Assembly: GCA_015491905.1 (NCBI GenBank) | Contig: WGGC01000066.1 | Coordinates: 3,833-67,832, forward strand | Length of the DNA stretch: 64,000 bases | Reading direction: 5' to 3' | From: Bacteroidales bacterium | Lineage (GTDB): Bacteria > Bacteroidota > Bacteroidia > Bacteroidales > F082 | In this document: piece after piece, positions 3,811 to 20,522 of the stretch | Layout: each line of letters opens with the position of its first letter | How positions within the stretch are numbered: the first letter of the stretch is position 1 | Made by a program: the position numbers and the translations under genes | The notes under the pieces: generated by a model | What the model was told of the DNA's origin: nothing | Seen by the model: the letters and a program-made list of their open reading frames with translations, nothing else | Database searches by the model: none

Positions 3811-3882
3811 GGCCTCATAGTTCAAGGGATAGAATAGGAGTTTCCTAAACTCTAGATCCAGGTTCGAGTCCTGGTGAGGCTA
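3811..3882 (+). tRNA. tRNA-Arg(CCT)
   Basis: Cloverleaf: acceptor GGCCTCA/TGAGGCT, anticodon arm GGAGT-TTCCTAA-ACTCT, T arm CAGG-TTCGAGT-CCTG. Confidence 0.95.
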
Positions 3883-3885
3883 CAA
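3867..3885 (+). repeat. attL core (3' end of tRNA-Arg, from the T-loop)
   Basis: Identical 19-mer at 11089-11107. Confidence 0.93.
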
Positions 3886-3940
3886 ATAAAAAACCATAAA
3901 CTTTTGATTTATAGTGTAAAATATATTTAACCGGTTGTTG

Positions 3941-3964
3941 TTGCACCGACTATTGCACCGACTT
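3941..3964 (+). repeat. Tandem integrase arm-type sites TTGCACCGAC-ta-TTGCACCGAC-tt
   Basis: 12-bp period; 23/24 identical copy at 10929-10952 in the same orientation. Confidence 0.8.
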
Positions 3965-4027
3965 CCCCGATTATTCCCGGATTTTTGACCTTTTGGGGGC
4001 GGTATCTATTCAATGAAATTTAATATC

Positions 4028-4091
4028 TTTGTCCTGCCTTGTGATTGAGGTAAAAGTTCAGGGGTAACCTTCCGGGGTTGCCCTTTTTGTT
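4028..4091 (+). ncRNA. Conserved 64-bp module: small hairpin plus intrinsic terminator (candidate sRNA or element-borne tRNA terminator)
   Basis: TATCTTTG at 4024-4031; stems TGCCT/AGGTA and GGGTAACCT/GGGTTGCCC followed by TTTTTGTT; 56/64 identical copy at 11249-11312. Confidence 0.45.
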
Positions 4092-4359
4092 ACTGTATAA
4101 TTTTCTTAATATGATAATAAGGCGGGTTTTTCACAGTGTTGTGATAAATATGTTTAAGTAAACTATCTGATGAAAAAGATTTCAGACCGTATATTTATCC
4201 CCGGGGGCTCATTAAATCTAAACAAACATGAATATCCCCTACAAATCCGACTATAAAAAGTTTCAAAAGTTTCACTATTTTTAAGCAAAGATTCACTTTT
4301 TTGAAGGGGAGTAATATTTATGGGTAATCGTTAATCCGACTACGCAAAAATCCGCTATC

Positions 4360-5703
4360 CTATTTCTGTTGTGCTAAAAATCGTTTTAACTCTTGTAGTC
4401 TTTTGAGGTATGGTAAAAAGGTTCGTTTACCGTTGTTTGCTTTCACGGTGGCAAAGTGGCTTTCAATAAATAGTGAACAATCTGTTATTGTAGTGTCCCT
4501 GTTTAGCTTTAAGGGTTGGGCTGGTATTTCAATATTTGAAAAGTAGTTTTCCAGTTCTGTAATGTTATTGTCCCAGCTTTTGGATTTTTCTTTTACAATC
4601 TGTTCAACTGGTTCAGGTTTAAATACCTCAACCTTGGGTAACGGTTCAGGCTTTGGTGCTTTCTTTATGTCCTGCTTTCTGAATAATTGCCAATCCTGTT
4701 TAATTAGATAGTCTGCAATATCTTTGCCTTTCTCTTTGTCCTGCTGTGGGGCTAATCGCTCCAATAAGTCTGAAACGTGAAAGTATGTACCCTGTAAACG
4801 CTTTTGTATTTCGGTGGCTTTATTGCTCCATAACTCAAAGGCTTTGCCGTCTTTTGATAGGTCAGGAAACAAATAAACATTCCTGCCTTTTAATGCCTGG
4901 CACTTGTTGAGGTTTAAACTGCTCAAATTGTAAACTGCCAACCAGAGTAAGTTTGTAGGTTGTTCAGGAAAACCAAAATACAACGTGCTATAAACAGCCG
5001 TTTTAGGTGCTTCAACCAATGCAATAGGGTTGTGTGGGTATTTACTTAAAAGGTGTTCACCAAACAAACAGGAAACCTTTATTTCGTTCTTATTGTATGC
5101 TTCCAACCAGCCGGGCAACGGCTTATTGTTTCGGGTGTGGTGCTTTTCAATTATTGAGTGTAAAAAGTCTGTGCCGGTGGTGTGGTTCTGTTCGTTAAAC
5201 TGTTTTACTTGTATTGCTCTAATATTACCCCGAACATCAATAAAAGGAAATGTTACCGCCCCTTTACGGTATCCGTTCTGCACCGTACCTAAACGGTACA
5301 ATGAAACAATCTTTTCAATGTCCTTTACTTCAAAAGGGAAGGCAACCTTTGCAAGTAAGTTTTGAATAAATACGTTCTGTTCATATCCCGAAAGTGTTTG
5401 TTTAAATACCTCAATTGGAATGAATACAGGTTTTGGCTGTGGTTTCTTTTGTTGTTTTGGTAGCTGTGGTTTCCGGTCTATTTTATTACCGTGTTCCTGC
5501 TCCCATATTGCTTTTGCGTAACCATCTTTGTACGGGTTGAGGTGGTAAGAACATTTACTTTCACGGTCGCAACGTCCGTACTGTTCGGGTAAATAGTCGC
5601 CCGTTTCTGTATCAATGTATTTAACAAATGACTTTTTACCACACAGGGGGCAGATAAACTTTCTGCTTCCATGTTCTAATTTGTATCTATACTCTGTATT
5701 CAT
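4360..5703 (-). CDS. Zn-ribbon plus TOPRIM-like protein (DUF6371/PG0870-related family), putative primase
   Basis: N-terminal CPLCGKK...CDRESKCSYH zinc ribbon; ALVEAPKTA and YLFPD acidic TOPRIM-type motifs; DIADYL; C-terminal helical domain. Confidence 0.7.
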   Translation of the reverse strand: MNTEYRYKLEHGSRKFICPLCGKKSFVKYIDTETGDYLPEQYGRCDRESKCSYHLNPYKDGYAKAIWEQEHGNKIDRKPQLPKQQKKPQPKPVFIPIEVFKQTLSGYEQNVFIQNLLAKVAFPFEVKDIEKIVSLYRLGTVQNGYRKGAVTFPFIDVRGNIRAIQVKQFNEQNHTTGTDFLHSIIEKHHTRNNKPLPGWLEAYNKNEIKVSCLFGEHLLSKYPHNPIALVEAPKTAVYSTLYFGFPEQPTNLLWLAVYNLSSLNLNKCQALKGRNVYLFPDLSKDGKAFELWSNKATEIQKRLQGTYFHVSDLLERLAPQQDKEKGKDIADYLIKQDWQLFRKQDIKKAPKPEPLPKVEVFKPEPVEQIVKEKSKSWDNNITELENYFSNIEIPAQPLKLNRDTTITDCSLFIESHFATVKANNGKRTFLPYLKRLQELKRFLAQQK

Positions 5704-5750
5704 ACTGCTTGAATTCCTGTTAAAAAAAGTTTTTTTTAAGGGCTAACTTT

Positions 5751-5795
5751 AGTAACTTTAGTAACTATCGAGTTATTTTCGTTACTAAAGTTACT
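5751..5795. repeat. Perfect 15-bp inverted repeat of tandem 9-mers (putative replication origin)
   Basis: AGTAACTTTAGTAAC (5751-5765), 15-bp spacer, GTTACTAAAGTTACT (5781-5795), immediately downstream of the helicase stop codon. Confidence 0.7.
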
Positions 5796-5815
5796 GTCTA
5801 AACAAATCTTTTTTT

Positions 5816-7303
5816 TTACCAATCCGAATTATTATTTTCCACATAAGCCGCCAGTTTATTCCCCGTAACTCTTTCAATTAAAACCCCAAACCCTTTTAGT
5901 CGTTTAATAAAATTAGACTTGTTCACGGGCTTAAAGCCATCTTCTATACAATAGTTTCTGTATTCTATGTATAGTTCTTTTATCAGCCTGTAATCAGTGG
6001 GGCTGCTTTGGTAGTTGTTTTCATCAATAAACATCTTTACACTATCGGACTGGCTTTTGTATTGCTCAACTGCTTGTTTTACTGCCCCACTATCTGTAAA
6101 GCTTTTTTGCTTCAATAGTCTATTAAGCCCATCCAGTACCCAATTAAAAACGCCTGAAAGTTCATTTTCAATTATTTTGGCATGTAGCTGTTTATCCTGT
6201 TCATGTTCGGGTATGGTAACATCAAAAGGAATAATCAAAAAACGTCTGAAATAAGCGTCTGTATGCTCAACATCTTTGGGTAACTCATTACTGTTAAATA
6301 TTAGTTTGGCATATTGTTTCAAAATAAATGGCTGCCCATACGGCAAGCGGGCTTCAACTGGTTCACCTGAAACCAATTGTTTAAATAAACTACTTTCCAA
6401 TTTTCCGTTAATCTCACTGCCATAATTTACCAACTTATTAGCCAGTTTCGCCCTGAAATAACCGTTATCATTTGTAAGGCTTTGCAATGAATAATTACTT
6501 GTATTCTCTGCTCCCAATAAAGCGCTCACAACTTCAAAAAACACGCTTTTCCCATTTGCTCCAGTACCGTAAAGTATTAACGCCTTTTCTTCTTTCAGTC
6601 TATTACTACCGTGCTTTATAAAAACAAAACCCAAATATTCAGCTAAAACCTTTTGGCGTTCTATGTCGGGCAATACCCTGTTTAAATAGGCTTCAAATAT
6701 CGGTGCTTTTGCCTGTGGGTCATATTCAAATGGTAATTGATAGGTGAGAAAATCTGAACGGTCAAACGGTCTTAATTGCGTACCTTTTGGGCTAACTTCA
6801 AACGTGCCGTTTTGCAAATTGATTAATACCTTATTTACCAAAGGTGGTTTTAGTTCAAGGTATGCAGTACCTAAAAACTGTTCAAAAAGTTCTTTTCTGA
6901 ATTTATAATACCGTGCTGAAAAGGTAGGAACGCCCATTTTTTCGGCTGCCTTTCCTAAAAACTTTTGAAATGTTTCTTTGTCCAGTTCAGCCCAGTGAGT
7001 ACCATTGAATAAATAAATGAAATCGTGGTTCTTGCATAAGCCCCAACGGTTGTTTTCTGCTTTCCGTAAGACGTTTTCAATAGATAAAACAGTATAATGC
7101 TTATTTGTTAGTTTAAAGTTTTCGGCACTGTGAGGGTTTGCCATTGCTTCAAAGTCCAACGGTTCAAACTGTTCAAGTAATTGGCTTAATATTTCATCGT
7201 GTGGGGTTGCTGTGGTATTTGTTATTTCCTGAACATGGTTTAAAATCGGTTTAGATTGCTGCAAGTCCTCGCCAAAATCTGGGTTTATCTTAATGGCTTC
7301 CAT
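5816..7303 (-). CDS. P4-family D5_N + SF3 replicative helicase (usually annotated 'phage/plasmid primase, P4 family')
   Basis: INLQNGT, Walker A GTGANGKS, FKQLVSGEPVEAR, IFNSNELP, AYFRRFLIIPF. Start moved to ATG 7303 (MEAIKINP), which follows AAAGGAG. Confidence 0.9.
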   Translation of the reverse strand: MEAIKINPDFGEDLQQSKPILNHVQEITNTTATPHDEILSQLLEQFEPLDFEAMANPHSAENFKLTNKHYTVLSIENVLRKAENNRWGLCKNHDFIYLFNGTHWAELDKETFQKFLGKAAEKMGVPTFSARYYKFRKELFEQFLGTAYLELKPPLVNKVLINLQNGTFEVSPKGTQLRPFDRSDFLTYQLPFEYDPQAKAPIFEAYLNRVLPDIERQKVLAEYLGFVFIKHGSNRLKEEKALILYGTGANGKSVFFEVVSALLGAENTSNYSLQSLTNDNGYFRAKLANKLVNYGSEINGKLESSLFKQLVSGEPVEARLPYGQPFILKQYAKLIFNSNELPKDVEHTDAYFRRFLIIPFDVTIPEHEQDKQLHAKIIENELSGVFNWVLDGLNRLLKQKSFTDSGAVKQAVEQYKSQSDSVKMFIDENNYQSSPTDYRLIKELYIEYRNYCIEDGFKPVNKSNFIKRLKGFGVLIERVTGNKLAAYVENNNSDW

Positions 7304-7532
7304 GGTTATCTCCTTTCTGCAAAGTGTACAACTGTGGGTTGTTCTCAATTAAAACCTTCGGCATCCCTATCCAAAGGCCACGGCCATAATTCAAGGTGTA
7401 ACCGTTTTCAGTTTCAATAAAATAATGTTTTTTGCCGGAAGGAAGTCCCAGCTTTTTAGGCATGTTTACTTGGAATTTTTTCTTATCTTTGCGCTGGTTC
7501 TGCCTGTCTTCGGATGGGCTTTTTTTATTCAT
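7290..7532 (-). CDS. Small basic hypothetical protein (80 aa), translationally coupled
   Basis: Overlaps the upstream stop and the downstream start; AAAGGAGG 8 nt before its ATG. Confidence 0.55.
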   Translation of the reverse strand: MNKKSPSEDRQNQRKDKKKFQVNMPKKLGLPSGKKHYFIETENGYTLNYGRGLWIGMPKVLIENNPQLYTLQKGDNHGSH

Positions 7533-7860
7533 CTCTCTGTCCTCCTTTGTTTATTAGTGCTTGTTCGACATCTGATCTCCTATATCGCACCTTACTGCCT
7601 ATTCTGACAGGCTTTAGTACATTTTTGTTATCCCAATGCCATAGAGTTGTGAGAGTTACTGATAGCATTTCTGCAACTTGTTGCCGGGTTAATAGTTCGT
7701 CCGGTTCATTTTGGGCTTGTATGCGGGCTTCAACCTCTTGTGCGGTATCTTGTACCAATTTATCGGCAAAGCTTATAAGATCGCTTCCGCTTACTTGTAA
7801 TGTGATGCTTTTTGCAATTTCCGGATATTGCTTTAATATTTTTATATCTATTGTTTTCAT
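7525..7860 (-). CDS. Helix-turn-helix (MerR/Xis-type, HTH_17) DNA-binding protein
   Basis: LLTRQQVAEMLSVTLTTLWHWDNKNVLKPVRIGSKVRYRRSDVE. Start set at MKTIDIK (7860), right after the upstream stop. Confidence 0.85.
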   Translation of the reverse strand: MKTIDIKILKQYPEIAKSITLQVSGSDLISFADKLVQDTAQEVEARIQAQNEPDELLTRQQVAEMLSVTLTTLWHWDNKNVLKPVRIGSKVRYRRSDVEQALINKGGQRDE

Positions 7861-7861
7861 T

Positions 7862-8089
7862 TTATTTTTCTTTGGTTGGTTCATGTTTACTACTTAATAA
7901 CCATTTGTCAATCTCTAAGCGATCGAAAAACAGAATCTTTCCTCCAGGTCGGCTATAAGGGACAACCCCCTTTCTTACCAACACATATAGATAGGCTTTA
8001 CTAATTCCAGTATAGGCGGCAAGTTCATCCATGTTAAACACCCTTTTTTGAGAGAGGTCGATTTCCGTAGTTTTAAGTTGTTTTTCCAT
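7862..8089 (-). CDS. Excisionase/AlpA-like HTH protein
   Basis: FNMDELAAYTGISKAYLYVLVRKGVVPYSRPGGKILFFDRLEIDKWL. Confidence 0.88.
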   Translation of the reverse strand: MEKQLKTTEIDLSQKRVFNMDELAAYTGISKAYLYVLVRKGVVPYSRPGGKILFFDRLEIDKWLLSSKHEPTKEK

Positions 8090-8225
8090 AATATTTATTA
8101 TTATTTATTGCATTTATAATGTGGTAATTATGCAGCAATAATATATATTATACACCCAAAGGATAGGTAATAATTACACTAATAAAGGAAATTATCACGT
8201 AATATACTCGGGTCAAATTATTTGC

Positions 8226-8233
8226 TATATTTG
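8226..8233 (+). promoter_or_regulatory. -7 promoter element TATATTTG for the lipoprotein gene
   Basis: TAnnTTTG consensus 10 nt before the ATG at 8244. Confidence 0.5.
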
Positions 8234-8243
8234 AAAAAACATT

Positions 8244-8540
8244 ATGAAAAAGTTAATTATTATTATTGCAATTGCAGCTTTGACAAGTTGTGTAATGCCG
8301 TCCAGGATGGCAAAAATTCAAATGGGATGGGATAAACAGCAAGTAGAACATCTGATGGGTAAACCTGTTGAGGTAAGCGCACAGGGACATATTACAGCGT
8401 TTAGATACCTAATGTTTGATGAATATTACTATGTTACATTCTACGATAATAAAGTAGCAAGTTTTGGAAAATTAGGCGACTTCAACTCAACAAAGAACCC
8501 AACTCTTGATTTAAATGTTACAACTAAAAAGAGGAAATAA
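8244..8540 (+). CDS. Small lipoprotein, SmpA/BamE-like fold
   Basis: Signal peptide MKKLIIIIAIAALTS-C with lipobox; IQMGWDKQQVEHLMGKP fits the 'l..Gmtk.qV..llG.P' motif. Confidence 0.7.
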   Translation: MKKLIIIIAIAALTSCVMPSRMAKIQMGWDKQQVEHLMGKPVEVSAQGHITAFRYLMFDEYYYVTFYDNKVASFGKLGDFNSTKNPTLDLNVTTKKRK

Positions 8541-8657
8541 CCACTCATCATCTGATGATTACATAATTTTATAACAAAAACGCTAAATAATTGAACACAA
8601 AAGGAAACTGATTACCCAATAATCCATCTAATAATTACTTTCTTGCACAAAAAAGTT

Positions 8658-9209
8658 ATGGGATTAGTAGATGGACTTATCGGATCGGGATTGTCAATTT
8701 TTGGAATGGCAAAAGGTGCAAAAGCCGGGAGGCAATTACAAAACGCTCAAGAAGGAGTTTTAGGCAGACAAAATAGTCTTGCGGATTGGTATAACAATCA
8801 GTCGAACAAAAGCTTTTTTGATACACAAGCAGCTCAATCAGGGTTAGCACGCATCAGAGACCAATACAAAAACTCTCTCGATCACATTAACAGCAACGGT
8901 GTTCAGGGCGGGGCTACAACGGAAGCTAAAGTAGCAGCTAAAAGTTCTTTGCAGGATTCTTATAACAAGTCTCTAAGCAACTTAGTCGGTTACGGAACAC
9001 AGTATCAGAATAACATGAAAAGAGCTTATGGAGGCACACTGCAAGGGATGTATCAGGGTAACAACGCTACTTACATGCCAGCTATTCGCTCGTGGGGGAA
9101 TCTTGCTAACAAAGGAGCAGATATAGCCCAGAAAGGGTTTGCATCAATGGAACTACCTACAGGAAAAGATGCTGGTTCTCTTGCGTCTATTCTTAAATTT
9201 TTATTTTAA
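8658..9209 (+). CDS. Gly/Ala/Gln/Asn-rich protein resembling phage virion ejection/DNA-pilot proteins
   Basis: N-terminus MGLVDGLIGSGLSIFGMAKGAKAG, then polar helical segment with WY and GGATTEAKVAAK. ORF track starts at TTG 8643; ATG 8658 is preferred. Functional call is by resemblance only. Confidence 0.55.
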   Translation: MGLVDGLIGSGLSIFGMAKGAKAGRQLQNAQEGVLGRQNSLADWYNNQSNKSFFDTQAAQSGLARIRDQYKNSLDHINSNGVQGGATTEAKVAAKSSLQDSYNKSLSNLVGYGTQYQNNMKRAYGGTLQGMYQGNNATYMPAIRSWGNLANKGADIAQKGFASMELPTGKDAGSLASILKFLF

Positions 9210-9305
9210 AAAACAATAAATACAATCTTAAAAGCTTTATATAAATAGGCAACTGTTTACTTGTAAAAAGGTCAGTCCAAAAATGGACTCATCTTTGCCC
9301 CAACC

Positions 9306-9551
9306 TCAAATAGGACGGCTCGAAAATGAGCTTTCCTGTTCAGCAGCAGAAAGTAACTCTATCAAGTCCGTATAAGTTGTGAAAACGTCACCAGTATTTG
9401 TCCTTTGGGGTTTTAAGTCGAGGAAAGCCCTGAACATATCTGTTAAATTTTCTTTGTGCCATGACATGTTTGCCTGGTCTTTCATTTCTTCAATCAATGA
9501 AATAACCTTTTCTTTACTACTGTTTTCCGTTTGTTTTTTTGCTTGTTCCAT
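9306..9551 (-). CDS. Small hypothetical protein (81 aa) downstream of the integrase
   Basis: Clean ORF co-oriented with int; predicted helical. Confidence 0.55.
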   Translation of the reverse strand: MEQAKKQTENSSKEKVISLIEEMKDQANMSWHKENLTDMFRAFLDLKPQRTNTGDVFTTYTDLIELLSAAEQESSFSSRPI

Positions 9552-9605
9552 GATAATAAATTTAAAGTGAAATAAAAGGAAATATTACTGTTATAATTAC
9601 TAATA

Positions 9606-10883
9606 TTATTTTGCAACTTTCAAATGGCTCCCGTTGTTCAGCCACATATCCCGCATCTTTTCAGCGTGTTCCTGCGGGGTTACTTTGATATATTTCAAAA
9701 ATGCGCTTTCCGTACGGTGTCCTGTTACGGCCATTATTGTAATTGAGGGGATGCCGGCCTTGTACATGTTGGTAGCAAAAGAACGCCGGGCGGTGTGGGT
9801 GCTAATCATTTGCCATTTGGGTTTTATAGTGGTTTCCAGTTTGCCTCCTCGTGTAAATTGTTTAGTGATTGCCTCTTTAAAGTCGGTCATCCGTGCAACC
9901 TCTTTCAAATATTCGTTGAATTTTTGGTTTGAAATAGGCCGGGGTAAATTGCCCTCGTATTTGTTCAGGATATTTTCAACTGGGGGATGTATAGGTATAA
10001 CAACCGGTTTGTTTGTCTTTTGTTGTTTTAGGGTGATAAATCCGTTTTCTATATTTTCCGGCCTTACTTTATGCCAGTCTGAAAATCTTAATCCAGTCCA
10101 GCAGCCGATTAAAAATAAGTCCCGTACCCGGTCAAGTTTTGGTTTATTTGACAAGTCCAAATTTTGGATTTTATCCAGTTCCGAAAGTGACAAATAAATA
10201 TTGTCTGTTTCCTCTGCAATAGCCTTAAAACGTTTACTTTTAAAAGCCAGGTTTGTATTTATACCCCTATCAGTGGCTTGGTTCAAAACAATTTTAAGGA
10301 AACGTATTTTTTTACCAATAGTATTTTGTGCTAAATTCCTGCTTTTCAAATATTTGATAAAGTCATTATAAAAATCCAGGTCAATATCTTTAAAATCAAT
10401 TTTCTTACCTCTGCTTTTGGCGTATTCTTTCAGGTAACCAAACGTTACATGAAATTCACGTTTTGACTGATAAGATATTTGCTTATCTGTCTTTTGGTTT
10501 ATCCGGTGGTCAAGGTTGTCTATTACAGACTGGAAAAACTCAAAAAGGGTCATTTTCTTTTCCTTGTATTTATCAGGAAAACGATATTTATCAATGACTG
10601 TATTTAACCATTCGGACGTCGGGGGTTCTTTCAGGGCTTTGTATGCCCCTATTATGGTGGCCTCTAACTTGTCAAGGTACTGTTTATCCTTGTCCTTATC
10701 GACGTATCTGGCCTGCTTATTTATAGTGTGGGTTTCGTTGCTGAAATGTCCCGGCAATACTTCAAGGCCTGATTTTGCATAAAGGTTGATTTTCTTTCCG
10801 TGATAAAATCTTACCCTTACATTAATTTTTTTTGTCGGGTCGGTCTTCTTTGATGTCCTGATGTAAAAATAGACTGTCGCCAT
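9606..10883 (-). CDS. Tyrosine recombinase/integrase (Bacteroidetes type with arm-binding and SAM-like domains)
   Basis: Catalytic set intact: GLRFSD (R), QKT (K), HTARR (HxxR), GHR (H), FLKYI (Y). Confidence 0.96.
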   Translation of the reverse strand: MATVYFYIRTSKKTDPTKKINVRVRFYHGKKINLYAKSGLEVLPGHFSNETHTINKQARYVDKDKDKQYLDKLEATIIGAYKALKEPPTSEWLNTVIDKYRFPDKYKEKKMTLFEFFQSVIDNLDHRINQKTDKQISYQSKREFHVTFGYLKEYAKSRGKKIDFKDIDLDFYNDFIKYLKSRNLAQNTIGKKIRFLKIVLNQATDRGINTNLAFKSKRFKAIAEETDNIYLSLSELDKIQNLDLSNKPKLDRVRDLFLIGCWTGLRFSDWHKVRPENIENGFITLKQQKTNKPVVIPIHPPVENILNKYEGNLPRPISNQKFNEYLKEVARMTDFKEAITKQFTRGGKLETTIKPKWQMISTHTARRSFATNMYKAGIPSITIMAVTGHRTESAFLKYIKVTPQEHAEKMRDMWLNNGSHLKVAK

Positions 10884-10907
10884 TGAGATTTAATTTAAAG
10901 TCCATTG

Positions 10908-10915
10908 CAAAGTTA
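10908..10915 (-). promoter_or_regulatory. -7 element TAACTTTG of the integrase promoter
   Basis: Reverse complement of CAAAGTTA, 24 nt upstream of the int ATG; its -33 region falls on the arm repeats. Confidence 0.55.
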
Positions 10916-10928
10916 TTAAATATTTTCA

Positions 10929-10952
10929 TTGCACCGACCATTGCACCGACTT
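10929..10952 (+). repeat. Tandem arm-type sites TTGCACCGAC-ca-TTGCACCGAC-tt near attR
   Basis: Near-identical to 3941-3964. Confidence 0.8.
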
Positions 10953-11088
10953 TTATTTAATTTCGTTTAATCTTTTGATACTTAATTAACCTTTTATTTA
11001 TTTTTAACATTGCTGTTAATAACTGATTAACTGCACTTTTATACCTATTTTCAGCACATTACATATCTCGTGAAATTAATAGGGTTAT

Positions 11089-11107
11089 AGTCCTGGTGAG
11101 GCTACAA
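11089..11107 (+). repeat. attR core (duplicate of the tRNA-Arg 3' end)
   Basis: Identical to 3867-3885. Confidence 0.93.
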
Positions 11108-11312
11108 CTTAAAAATATAAAGTAGTGTATTACAATTATTTATAGTACACTGCTATTTATATTGTAACCACCAATGTAACCACCACCTTAATTATTCCCT
11201 GAATATTGCTGTATTTTTACCGTGGTGGGTTAAATGGAATTTAGTTCTTTTGTCATGCCTTGTGATTAAGGCAAAAGTTCAGGGATAACCTTTCAGGATT
11301 GACCTTTTTGTT
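11108..11312 (+). mobile_element. Left end of a second, decayed sister element
   Basis: Same layout and spacing as 3886-4091: tandem TGTAACCACCA repeats (11163-11173, 11175-11185), ATTATTCCC, and the 64-bp module at offset 160 versus 161 bp from att. Confidence 0.75.
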
Positions 11313-20224: not shown

Positions 20225-20522
20225 ATTCCTGTTATGGCCATTACCGTAAGCCCGGAATACAGGCTTTATACATATTAGTTGTGAACGAACGCAGGACAGG
20301 GGTGATGTTACCAGCTATTATTTGTGTTTTATGTTTGGTTCTGTTTTACGGCTTCGTGTAACCTGCTTTTGTTATGGATTCTTTGAATTCTGCCAGTTTT
20401 GCAATCTGTTTTAGGTACTCGTTAAGCTTCTGGTTGCTTATTATCGGGGGTAAATCACCGTTTCTCAAAAAGTTAATAAAGCCATCGTAAAAGTCTAAAT
20501 CAACATCTTTAAAATCAATATC
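20225..20522 (-). pseudogene. Internally deleted, frameshifted tyrosine integrase paralogous to 9606-10883
   Basis: Hand translation DIDFKDVDLDFYDGFINFL|RNGDLPPIISNQKLNEYLKQIAKLAEFKESITK...RSFTTNMYKA.../TVMAITG versus intact IDFKDIDLDFYNDFIKYL...ISNQKFNEYLK...RSFATNMYKA...IMAVTG. Confidence 0.85.

Follow-up and report, generated by a model that had tools for sequence, protein, structure and literature searches.

The locus considered here raises the question of what kind of integrative element occupies a tRNA gene of an uncultured Bacteroidota bacterium, and by what route it could move between hosts. Within the window, that is the whole 64-kb stretch of DNA that was analysed, an intact 7.24-kb integrative element lies in tRNA-Arg(CCT) and is present as one copy in its genome. 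Its ends are marked by the following features:

3811..3883, plus strand: tRNA-Arg(CCT), the integration target (ARAGORN; Rfam tRNA, 62 bits)
3867..3885, plus strand: attL core, 19 bp (exact repeat)
3941..3964, plus strand: left arm-type repeat pair, TTGCACCGAC twice (direct-repeat family D16), candidate integrase arm sites
10929..10952, plus strand: right arm-type repeat pair, TTGCACCGAC twice (family D16), upstream of the int start
11089..11107, plus strand: attR core, 19 bp (exact repeat); the sequence before it is non-tRNA
11108..11312, plus strand: left-end remnant of a sister element, beyond the live one (aligns with the left end here and with the element of genome G019)

The attL site is formed by the 3' end of tRNA-Arg(CCT), and the core 19-mer, AGTCCTGGTGAGGCTACAA, has exactly two copies in the 64-kb window with 0 expected in shuffles, which bears out an earlier reading made from the letters alone (the sequence-only reading) that had placed an intact element between 19-bp att repeats. 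The two arm-repeat pairs lie just inside each end, are 96% identical and have analogues at the same offset in the G019 element and in the sister remnant. The latter carries its own arm repeats (TGTAACCACC twice) together with a degraded copy of an 83-nt module, and is 74% identical to G019 over 159 nt. With a further integrase remnant at 20247-20459, it shows that decayed relatives accumulate at tRNA-Arg(CCT).

The element itself has been recently mobile. The ENA scaffolds L008 and L120, the latter holding a sister variant, stop exactly 36 nt outside the att core, and since 36 + 19 = 55 is likely to be the final assembly k-mer size, these ends fit a graph branch from a co-occurring empty attB; the breaks thus suggest that empty and occupied sites occur side by side. 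The tRNA beside a sister element in the complete genome G007, of the same genus, is 100% identical to the present one over 78 nt. Other genus members have a single copy of the att core, site occupancy varies within the genus, and one element lineage is present in two host backgrounds whose tRNA core variants differ.

The genes for integration, excision and replication are arranged as follows, with a candidate origin and the 83-nt module on either side of the primase gene:

9606..10883, minus strand: tyrosine integrase, 425 aa, intact (Pfam Phage_int_SAM_5 and Phage_integrase; phrog_1)
9306..9551, minus strand: 81-aa ORF next to int on its downstream side (integrase-contiguous gene), without assigned function (ORF list)
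7862..8089, minus strand: HTH_17/AlpA-like excisionase, 75 aa, with which the leftward operon begins (Pfam HTH_17 1.5e-8; TIGR01764 above cut-off)
7525..7884, minus strand: HTH_17/MerR-like excisionase-regulator, 119 aa (Pfam HTH_17 1.5e-9; phrog_66)
7290..7532, minus strand: 80-aa ORF between the 119-aa excisionase-regulator and the helicase, without assigned function (ORF list)
5816..7348, minus strand: D5/P4-family SF3 replicative helicase, D5_N and DUF5906 (Pfam; phrog_864 1e-85; TIGR01613 1e-57)
5722..5815, no strand assigned: candidate replication origin between the helicase and primase genes (inverted repeat I1)
4360..5703, minus strand: predicted Zn-ribbon and TOPRIM DnaG-type primase, Zn_ribbon_16, DUF6371 and a C-terminal DUF6965 (Pfam)
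4009..4091, plus strand: conserved 83-nt module, after the primase gene (repeat match and comparison with G019)

The integrase is 80% identical to that of the 19.9-kb sister element in G007, which is bounded by the same att core, and 89% identical to that of L120, in which the 81-aa ORF is also conserved (88% identity); this ORF has no family match. The 119-aa HTH_17 protein is 61-62% identical to its G007 and G019 copies. The frames of both HTH_17 genes, the 80-aa ORF and the helicase overlap, so that these genes are translationally coupled. The 80-aa ORF has no family match in Pfam, PHROG or NCBIfam and no blastp match in 80 related loci, and relatives carry a ~100-aa ORF at this position. 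The helicase probably starts at 7303, giving 495 aa, and the identical ENA scaffold likewise carries a helicase gene call of 495 aa. Helicase and primase genes are separated by 112 nt, a gap filled by the iteron-like inverted repeat I1 (45-nt arms, 76% complementary), in which 9-bp units TAACTTTAG face inverted copies and A7 and T8 runs lie on the flanks. Judging from this sequence pattern, 5722..5815 would act as the replication origin. The DUF6371 protein is by its predicted fold a DnaG-type primase: the AlphaFold model (pLDDT 86) has DnaG, T4 gp61 or T7 gp4 primases as all of its top 26 Foldseek PDB matches, and C18/C21/C45, E231, D281 and D328/D331 are invariant in 52 sequences, with C51 in at least 90%. 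The intact integrase and the xis-xis-orf-helicase-ori-TOPRIM operon of the sequence-only reading are thus upheld by domains and overlapping frames, the ori itself as a candidate, and the TOPRIM call by the structure model.

A search for related elements across the Bacteroidota, proposed in that reading, returned close primase relatives in the genomes of at least 153 species from several orders, and 80 loci were compared. Directly upstream of the primase stands a D5 (40 loci), AAA_25 (17) or DUF3987 (10) helicase, and the three types are interchangeable in the family. A co-oriented integrase lies at most 9 kb away in 55 of the 80 loci; the integrases vary, as do the integration sites, which include several tRNAs and the 3' end of mnmE. 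A chassis conserved in so many species while integrases, helicases and sites vary argues for frequent horizontal movement and recombination. Relaxases of either type had no BLAST match in the 80 loci, and no relaxase family was found among 108 unlabelled ORFs. The element is a member of a phylum-wide, unnamed family of relaxase-less elements, and there is little doubt about this identity and family placement.

In the G007 sister the cargo slot is a defence island with type I R-M, a Schlafen/AlbA ATPase, a DUF1016 nuclease and a KAP NTPase. A 7.55-kb relative, L101, bounded by an 18-bp repeat (17/18 identical) at the mnmE stop, has a Terminase_2 small subunit (TerS) gene directly after the primase (E 7e-27; phrog_51 1e-27), whose product is 36% identical to TerS of Cellulophaga phage Nekkels, and in a Chryseobacterium cluster this slot holds a gene with weak likeness to TerS (phrog_24579, 9e-5); among about 55 complete relatives, TerS is found in just one. 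This post-primase slot, which holds mob, terS or unknown genes in relatives, is filled here by the 83-nt module, which contains a TAnnTTTG-like -7 box and two hairpins, a small one and a GC one that has a U-tract (terminator-like site at 4060-4085). The module is 82% identical to that of the G019 element and 83% to 11230-11312, in the remnant whose terminator hairpin is weakened; it folds at -21.8 kcal/mol (z = -2.0), matched no Rfam family and is a candidate ~55-nt sRNA or bidirectional terminator.

In agreement with the sequence-only reading, no relaxase, capsid, portal, terminase or CI-type repressor is matched in the element by Pfam, PHROG, NCBIfam or PADLOC, and the HMM check of its ORFs for a relaxase gave no match; nor does the element have a TerS or a recognisable cos site, pac site or oriT. 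The Mob protein of Tn4555 itself has no Pfam match, so HMM negatives alone do not exclude unusual relaxases, and the point rests on BLAST and on ORF size, since a usual relaxase would need more than the 80-183 aa of the remaining unassigned ORFs. The contrast that had been drawn with NBU-type elements did not hold. The Tn4555 circle (CP103138.1) has the order excisionase, AAA ATPase, DUF6371 and mobilization protein, and MTnBf8 the order xis-like, AAA, topoisomerase/primase and mobN1 (PMC13597742). The xis-helicase-DUF6371 block is homologous to this Tn4555/NBU-type backbone minus mob, which makes the element a relaxase-less relative of those elements and not of PICIs.

The slot between int and xis is occupied by a divergent cassette of two cargo genes:

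8244..8540, plus strand: 98-aa lipoprotein with lipobox LTSC (sequence)
8658..9209, plus strand: p183, a 183-aa all-helical protein (ATG at 8658; 188 aa from TTG at 8643)

The lipoprotein has a weak BamE-like Pfam match, below cut-off, and is missing from L120, where only 220 nt separate xis from the 183-aa gene. Homologues of p183 number about 10 in 5.8 billion proteins. On phage-like contigs, copies 42-75% identical to it stand first in a conserved operon, with a partner of ~340-411 aa next and, on longer contigs, a giant InPase/Eco57I/SNF2 protein; the same contigs have RecT, endonuclease VII, NinG and ANT genes. Compared with L123, the p183 region has 70% nucleotide identity beginning 79 nt upstream of the ATG. 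The partner has no homologue within the window, the genome has no second p183, and p183 itself is an orphan copy of the gene heading this operon.

The cassette might primarily be an anti-phage device, which would be compatible with any transfer route: p183 would poison the assembly or function of the phage ~400-aa and giant proteins, and the lipoprotein would block a surface receptor. Such a role is possible though doubtful. It would account for a p183 that stands without its invariable partner, in the slot holding defence genes in G007 and with an upstream region of its own, shared at the DNA level with a phage-type contig, and PICMIs and other satellites are known to protect their hosts against competing phages (PMC10803314). 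However, the cassette has no PADLOC match as a defence system, the structure model of p183 is unreliable (pLDDT 48), and the lipoprotein is dispensed with in L120.

As to transfer, the element is tentatively regarded as a phage satellite packaged in phage particles, and the whole explanation, an intact relaxase-less element with a phage route, is put forward just as cautiously. Upon a signal, the HTH_17 proteins and the integrase would excise the element as a circle, which the helicase-primase pair would amplify, starting at the intergenic origin. Since it has no transfer gene, it would then hitch-hike, most likely in the capsids of an infecting, non-resident and possibly virulent phage like the Vibrio PICMI minimal satellites, and p183 might interface with the helper or interfere with related phages. 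Family-level clues, namely the TerS of L101, the rarity of conjugation genes and the phage-derived p183, lean to this route, as do the absence of relaxases from the 80 loci and a gene set that agrees with the PICMI model of a minimal satellite save for the integration site. Spread in helper-phage particles, which the sequence-only reading had put forward as an inference, stays one. Nothing directly indicates a circle, replication or encapsidation: IMG/VR contains neither the attP junction nor a copy of p183, and its only two real primase relatives come without proof of virion origin. An attP branch would have interrupted the L008 contig, which instead runs on unbroken past that point, so circles were not abundant in that sample, and three genus genomes contain no Terminase_6N prophage, so no helper was identified. 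The "unrecognised route" of that reading also overlooked the PICMIs, which are minimal satellites without capsid or terminase genes, and the VEIMEs. It counts against the phage route that, of the elements built on this chassis, those studied by experiment all move by conjugation. The primase-like gene of NBU1 was reportedly needed for excision and not for replication (work of Shoemaker et al. 2000).

Conjugation is the second route to be weighed and is considered unlikely. A relaxase-less NBU/Tn4555-type derivative would retain an oriT, with the 470-bp non-coding end and the helicase-primase spacer as possible places, and use the relaxase and mating channel of a conjugative element in trans, with the primase making the complementary strand in the recipient. 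The chassis is indeed homologous to Tn4555 and MTnBf8, in which mob directly follows the DUF6371 gene, the mob slot here holds a conserved and structured module, Bacteroidota relaxases may evade Pfam, and other phyla are known to have hitchers with an oriT alone. However, PF03432 relaxase, CTnDOT TraJ and the TraG-D_C coupling protein are absent from G000, G007 (complete) and G019, all of which carry family members (control genomes match), and CTnDOT-type TraJ is found in only 6-8 of 50 other carrier genomes. Furthermore, the non-coding ends have no similarity to the Tn4555 circle, its mob-upstream region included, and L101 took in TerS, not mob. Less probable again is a self-replicating island without a dedicated transfer route, persisting mostly vertically through the benefit of its cargo slot (defence genes in relatives, lipoprotein and p183 here) and spreading rarely, when generalized transduction, vesicles or transformation bring it into a new cell where the integrase inserts it: the lack of any detected transfer gene, the defence island of the G007 sister, the decayed relatives at the same tRNA (11108-11312; 20247-20459) and the rarity of the family in IMG/VR are in keeping with it, but the chassis kept in at least 153 species amid changing integrases, helicase types and sites, the one lineage in two host backgrounds with their different tRNA cores and the uneven site occupancy within a genus argue against it.

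Among known systems, Tn4555, NBU1, NBU2 and MTnBf8 share with the element a Phage_int_SAM_5-type tyrosine integrase, HTH_17/excisionase gene(s) and a P-loop helicase-type ATPase followed by a Zn-ribbon/DUF6371 TOPRIM protein in equal order and orientation, and the NBUs likewise integrate into tRNA 3' ends. Unlike them, the element has no mob relaxase gene after the primase or elsewhere and no recognisable oriT, its helicase is D5/SF3 whereas theirs is AAA_25, its primase has an added DUF6965 tail, and its host genomes are without CTn-type conjugation markers. The VEIMEs of marine plankton (virion-encapsidated integrative mobile elements; PMC9618062), reported as integrated in Flavobacteria among other hosts, are likewise small and integrative and have integrase, AlpA/excisionase and primase/helicase genes, but what defines them is that they were recovered from purified virus particles, whereas the element and its close relatives are known as sequences. 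PICIs and SaPIs share the int, xis/alpA, pri/rep and ori layout, and L101 resembles PICIs in having terS at its end; the element itself differs in lacking terS, ppi, capsid-morphogenesis genes and a Stl-like repressor, and is smaller than typical PICIs. The PICMIs of the Vibrionaceae are proven minimal satellites with int, AlpA/HTH_17 and a DUF5906/DUF3987 primase but no capsid or terminase genes (PMC10803314). They belong to another phylum, lie next to fis and not in a tRNA, and have no split of replication between a helicase and a separate DnaG-type primase; the likeness is one of shared domains only, with no sequence-level relatedness seen. Of the four genes in the PICMI model the element has three, and it shares with PICMIs a size of ~6-7 kb, the lack of capsid-remodelling and terminase genes, an integrase with a small adjacent gene, AlpA/HTH_17, a small ORF and a DUF5906/DUF3987 primase-helicase, and cargo able to protect the host.

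The 7,241-bp interval at 3867-11107 has the sequence features of a classic insertion into the 3′ end of a tRNA gene. A tRNA-Arg(CCT) gene is accompanied by a 19-bp repeat, AGTCCTGGTGAGGCTACAA, which consists of the final 17 bases of the gene plus two more, and the sequence before the right copy is non-tRNA. The sequence-only reading had described an intact att-bounded element, and the repeat pair, the integrase, the HTH_17 genes, the helicase and the primase were all found.

Features of the element and its integration site (window positions)
3811-3883: tRNA-Arg(CCT), the integration target
3867-3885 and 11089-11107: 19-bp att core, exactly two copies in 64 kb against a chance expectation of none
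From the right end, read leftward: integrase (425 aa), then an 81-aa ORF
Rightward: lipoprotein (98 aa) and p183 (183 aa)
Divergent from the lipoprotein/p183 pair: overlapping chain of HTH_17 (75 aa), HTH_17 (119 aa), an 80-aa ORF and a D5_N/DUF5906 SF3 helicase
Directly after the helicase gene: 112-nt spacer with iteron-like inverted repeats
After the spacer: Zn_ribbon_16/DUF6371/DUF6965 protein (447 aa)
4009-4091: 83-nt module, with a further copy at 213-294 of locus L029

Two tandem copies of TTGCACCGAC (repeat family D16) lie in the same orientation about 60 and 140 bp inside the two element ends and are predicted to be the expected arm-type integrase sites. The final 470 bp ahead of attL are non-coding and hold the 83-nt module, which resembles a promoter, hairpin and terminator. 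It is 82-83% conserved in three elements in the midst of diverged non-coding DNA, folds into two hairpins and a U-tract in its two intact copies, and has no match among Rfam families. The element is present as a single copy in its own 3.0-Mb genome of 204 contigs. Directly after attR, positions 11108-11312 hold what remains of a sister element's left end, decayed but with two TGTAACCACC arm repeats and with the 83-nt module at 83% identity, its terminator weakened. About 9 kb beyond this remnant and on the same strand as the integrase gene, a fragment at 20247-20459 is 50% identical to integrase residues 311-381. Judging from their sequence, the two remnants suggest an older element that accreted in tandem and then decayed.

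The DUF6371 protein is predicted to be a DnaG-type primase. Its AlphaFold model, built on 45 family sequences, reached a pLDDT of 86, and in a fold search its 26 best PDB matches were all DnaG-type primases, including the Aquifex primase, T4 gp61, the catalytic cores of bacterial DnaG and T7 gp4. The likeness is seen by fold search only, as a profile-to-PDB sequence search gave no match. Across 52 sequences the Zn-ribbon cysteines C18, C21 and C45 never vary, nor do one glutamate and three aspartates; at least 90% of the sequences also have C51. At 80 related loci its immediate upstream neighbour encodes a helicase (D5/SF3 in 40, RepA-like AAA_25 in 17 and DUF3987 in 10); these are three unrelated types, the pattern to be expected if the primase works together with a replicative helicase. 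Both the earlier 'TOPRIM' call and the idea of a split replisome, with a separate helicase gene directly upstream of the primase, are thereby upheld.

DUF6371 is listed within the Tn4555 gene block (PMC13183296), and the circular form of Tn4555 (CP103138.1) has the gene order excisionase, AAA ATPase, DUF6371, mobilization protein, cfxA and, further on, integrase. The NBU-like MTnBf8 is similarly ordered as xis-like, AAA, topoisomerase/primase and mobN1 (PMC13597742). The sequence-only reading had contrasted the element with NBU-type elements. That contrast falls, as by gene order its xis-helicase-primase block is the Tn4555/NBU backbone itself, minus the relaxase gene. The reading's other point, that a relaxase is lacking, was borne out: no ORF of the element matched one in Pfam, PHROG or NCBIfam searches, with the caveat that the Mob of Tn4555 itself goes undetected by Pfam, and a tblastn search of the whole 64-kb window with that Mob and with a PF03432-type relaxase gave no match. 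Since the unassigned ORFs are also small (80-183 aa), the relaxase is considered absent, and the element is very probably a member, lacking a relaxase, of a Bacteroidota family that is widespread and has a Tn4555/NBU core. Its non-coding ends show no similarity to the Tn4555 circle, including the region upstream of mob; an oriT may still be present. Several small GenBank records from human faecal samples labelled 'Bacteriophage sp.' (MT836643.1 and other MT83xxxx entries) are themselves NBU/Tn4555-like elements, the first encoding int, xis, a DUF3987 helicase, DUF6371 and a PF03432 relaxase.

Relatives of the primase were sought with two peptide patterns and occur in at least 153 of about 185,000 species genomes; the locus counts rest on the best 80 of the 153. 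The record titles of these 80 include Flavobacteriales, Bacteroidales, Chitinophagales and Saprospiraceae, with genera such as Algoriphagus, Cyclobacterium and Parapedobacter. Several are cultured strains, and cultured carriers include strains of Maribacter, Algoriphagus, Chryseobacterium, Tenacibaculum, Moheibacter and Parapedobacter, among them Maribacter thermophilus HT7-2, Chryseobacterium shigense DSM 17126, Algoriphagus namhaensis and Tenacibaculum insulae. Family elements adjoin mnmE or a tRNA and are usually laid out as an optional HTH gene, int, a variable ORF, xis, an ORF of about 100 aa, helicase and primase, in some cases followed by genes for a 198-aa and a 195-aa protein. BLAST matched neither relaxase type to any of the 80 loci, and among 108 unlabelled ORFs within family elements Pfam recognised no relaxase family. 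Of the syntenic set that the sequence-only reading had proposed to look for across Bacteroidota, the helicase-DUF6371 pair is widespread (with D5 in 40 of 80) and p183 occurs in none of the 80. The 80-aa ORF, the 81-aa ORF and the lipoprotein likewise have no counterpart there, so all four are specific to the lineage of the element. Charybdis elements and the Riemerella '10K GI' in tRNA-Arg were rejected as relatives because their gene content differs, and the family appears to be undescribed in the literature searched.

Loci related to the element
G007:C1:541922-561826 (L028 + L128): 19.9-kb sister element at the same tRNA-Arg core
L101, 4881-12448: 7.55-kb relative at the mnmE stop codon of a Bacteroidales MAG chromosome, bounded by an 18-bp repeat (17/18 identical)
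L009 10001-20630 and L038 9899-20474: operon of a p183 homologue, a protein of about 400 aa and a giant protein, on phage-like contigs of 64 and 86 kb

The sister element lies in a complete genome of the same genus (G007), where an identical tRNA and 19-bp core bound it. It shares 60% identity with the element in the primase, 62% in xis and 80% in the integrase, has an AAA_25 helicase and encodes no relaxase. Its cargo slot, between int and xis, holds a type I R-M system with an embedded Schlafen/AlbA ATPase, a DUF1016 nuclease and a KAP NTPase, together with an IS3-type insertion. Another relative sits at the same tRNA in a second genome of the genus (G019), and seven other members have one copy of the att core only. 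An independent ENA scaffold of 7,313 bp (L008) corresponds to window positions 3831-11143, that is the core-bounded element plus exactly 36 nt on each side. A contig of 3127 bp from a second sample (L120), with an integrase 89% and a p183 83% identical to those of the element, no lipoprotein and a tRNA core variant ending in CTACTA, likewise stops exactly 36 nt past its own att core. The source metagenomes are the samples of ENA assemblies ERZ23496706 and ERZ23495180. As 36 and 19 add up to 55, a likely final assembly k-mer size, it may be inferred from contig geometry rather than from reads that the breaks are assembly-graph branches due to an empty attB present alongside; for the break on the right in particular, reads must lead from the tRNA across the core and on into the flank there. 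The breaks argue for presence/absence polymorphism and not for circles, because the L008 scaffold is unbroken where an attP branch would fall. Such a 36-nt signature at att sites could serve to screen assemblies for polymorphic insertions.

The cargo protein p183 has only about 10 relatives in 5.8 billion proteins; a copy in a sister element is 83% identical and the others 75-42%. Each of these others is followed within a few bases by a protein of about 340-411 aa, all of one family, and on contigs that extend far enough a giant protein comes third (>2,860 aa in L038; 4,447 aa, with InPase, Eco57I-methylase and SNF2-helicase domains, in L009). The giant resembles injected 'polyvalent'/DarB-like proteins. 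Genes beside the operon on the 64- and 86-kb contigs encode RecT, endonuclease VII/HNH, FtsK-like, NinG and ANT proteins, and none of the three operon proteins has a PHROG family. Because its relatives head this operon and its DNA similarity (70%) to one phage-like contig starts 79 nt upstream of the start codon, p183 is read as an orphaned copy of a phage operon's leading gene that brought its upstream region along. No partner is present in the window and no second p183 in the element's own genome, and single-sequence and profile searches of the phage GenBank collection and IMG/VR gave no match. The AlphaFold model of p183 (pLDDT 48) is unusable. By analogy with injected giant anti-restriction proteins, its earlier 'virion-like' label was a reasonable guess. 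A role in interference is at least as likely as one at the helper interface, since the same cargo slot holds defence genes in G007; PADLOC gave no defence assignment for the element's cargo.

The element must depend on a helper. PICMIs are proven satellites without capsid or terminase genes whose concatemers are packaged by virulent phages (PMC10803314), and a PICMI-like phage route is favoured here, with a likelihood a little short of even. Directly 3′ of its primase gene, L101 encodes a 192-aa small terminase (Terminase_2, 7e-27; phrog_51, 1e-27), which shares 36% identity with the protein annotated as TerS in Cellulophaga phage Nekkels. The terS gene is a PICI hallmark, and L101 may be regarded as a PICI-like candidate satellite. 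In a Chryseobacterium subgroup the post-primase slot is taken by a gene with weak likeness to TerS. Both findings speak for a phage route, as does the element's own agreement with the integrase, AlpA/HTH_17 and DUF5906 components of the PICMI model. IMG/VR contains no virome copy of the element and no attP junction; its two family members, a tandem pair of elements and one element beside tail-like genes, do not prove encapsidation. The tandem pair makes up a 'viral' contig of 12.7 kb (IMGVR_UViG_3300009870_000703) without phage genes. The three genus genomes have no Terminase_6N prophage, so any helper would be non-resident.

Conjugation in trans, by which conjugative machinery would move the relaxase-less element, would suit its common ancestry with mobilizable transposons and the conserved structured module in the place of mob. 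It is nevertheless improbable, as PF03432 relaxase, CTnDOT-type TraJ and TraG-type coupling protein are all missing from the element's own genome, the complete G007 and G019, with controls that match, and TraJ occurs in just 6-8 of 50 other carrier genomes. That there is no dedicated transfer route is less probable still.

The phage route can be extended to a broader reading that is rather doubtful as a whole, namely that of a Bacteroidota-wide 'hitcher' class in which one xis-helicase-DnaG-primase chassis is combined with an interchangeable transfer adaptor after the primase. The adaptor would be the Mob relaxase in Tn4555/NBUs, for conjugation, a small terminase in L101, for phage packaging, and a 198-aa/195-aa pair in many members. 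At least 19 of the 80 loci have, after the primase, a protein of about 195 aa that is rich in basic residues and has an invariant C-x6-C; in several it comes after one of about 198 aa (7 clustered at 1e-5), and these genes occupy the slot of Tn4555 mob and L101 terS. Their products have no Pfam, PHROG or phage match. That they are unrecognised small terminases was rejected for now; an hhalign comparison between the 198-aa family and L101 TerS gave a probability of 0.7%. In the present element the slot would hold only the structured RNA-like module. The element would then be a terminase-less PICMI-like satellite of virulent phages, with p183, a copy of a phage gene, as its grip on the helper.

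Many genomic islands carry integrases without known means of cell-to-cell movement. This family is common across Bacteroidota and shares the core of textbook mobilizable transposons, yet lacks their relaxase. If its members are borne in capsids, they would to our knowledge be the first phage satellites of Bacteroidota amenable to laboratory study, a single-gene swap could switch one replication chassis between conjugative and viral hitch-hiking, and vehicles for defence cargo would have been identified in Bacteroidota from marine and gut habitats. Cultured carriers make these ideas directly testable.

The element had been placed outside the definitions of PICIs, cf-PICIs, P4-like satellites and PLEs; the defining genes of all four are indeed absent, but the element is kin to other known kinds. 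Unlike PLEs, which have a large serine recombinase and PLE-specific genes, it uses a tyrosine recombinase. It shares with P4-like satellites only the P4-family helicase domain (TIGR01613), with no match to psu, sid or delta. In contrast to cf-PICIs it has no capsid, protease, portal or head-tail adaptor of its own and no head or packaging PHROG match. Pfam, PHROG and NCBIfam searches found none of the terS, ppi, capsid-morphogenesis and master repressor genes of PICIs, and terS occurs within the family only in the distant relative L101. VEIMEs are defined by recovery from purified virus particles; the IMG/VR entries for the family's two members there do not prove such an origin. Like NBU/Tn4555 elements it is bounded by att repeats and has a site-specific integrase, excision genes and an ATPase-DUF6371 pair, but its helicase is D5 rather than AAA_25 and it has no mob gene of its own. 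The PICMI model requires an integrase, AlpA (PF05930/PF12728), a primase (PF13148 or PF19263) and integration next to fis (PMC10803314); although the element lies in tRNA-Arg(CCT) and not beside fis, it carries PF00589, PF12728 (twice) and PF19263, corresponding to the integrase, AlpA/HTH_17 and DUF5906 components of that model.
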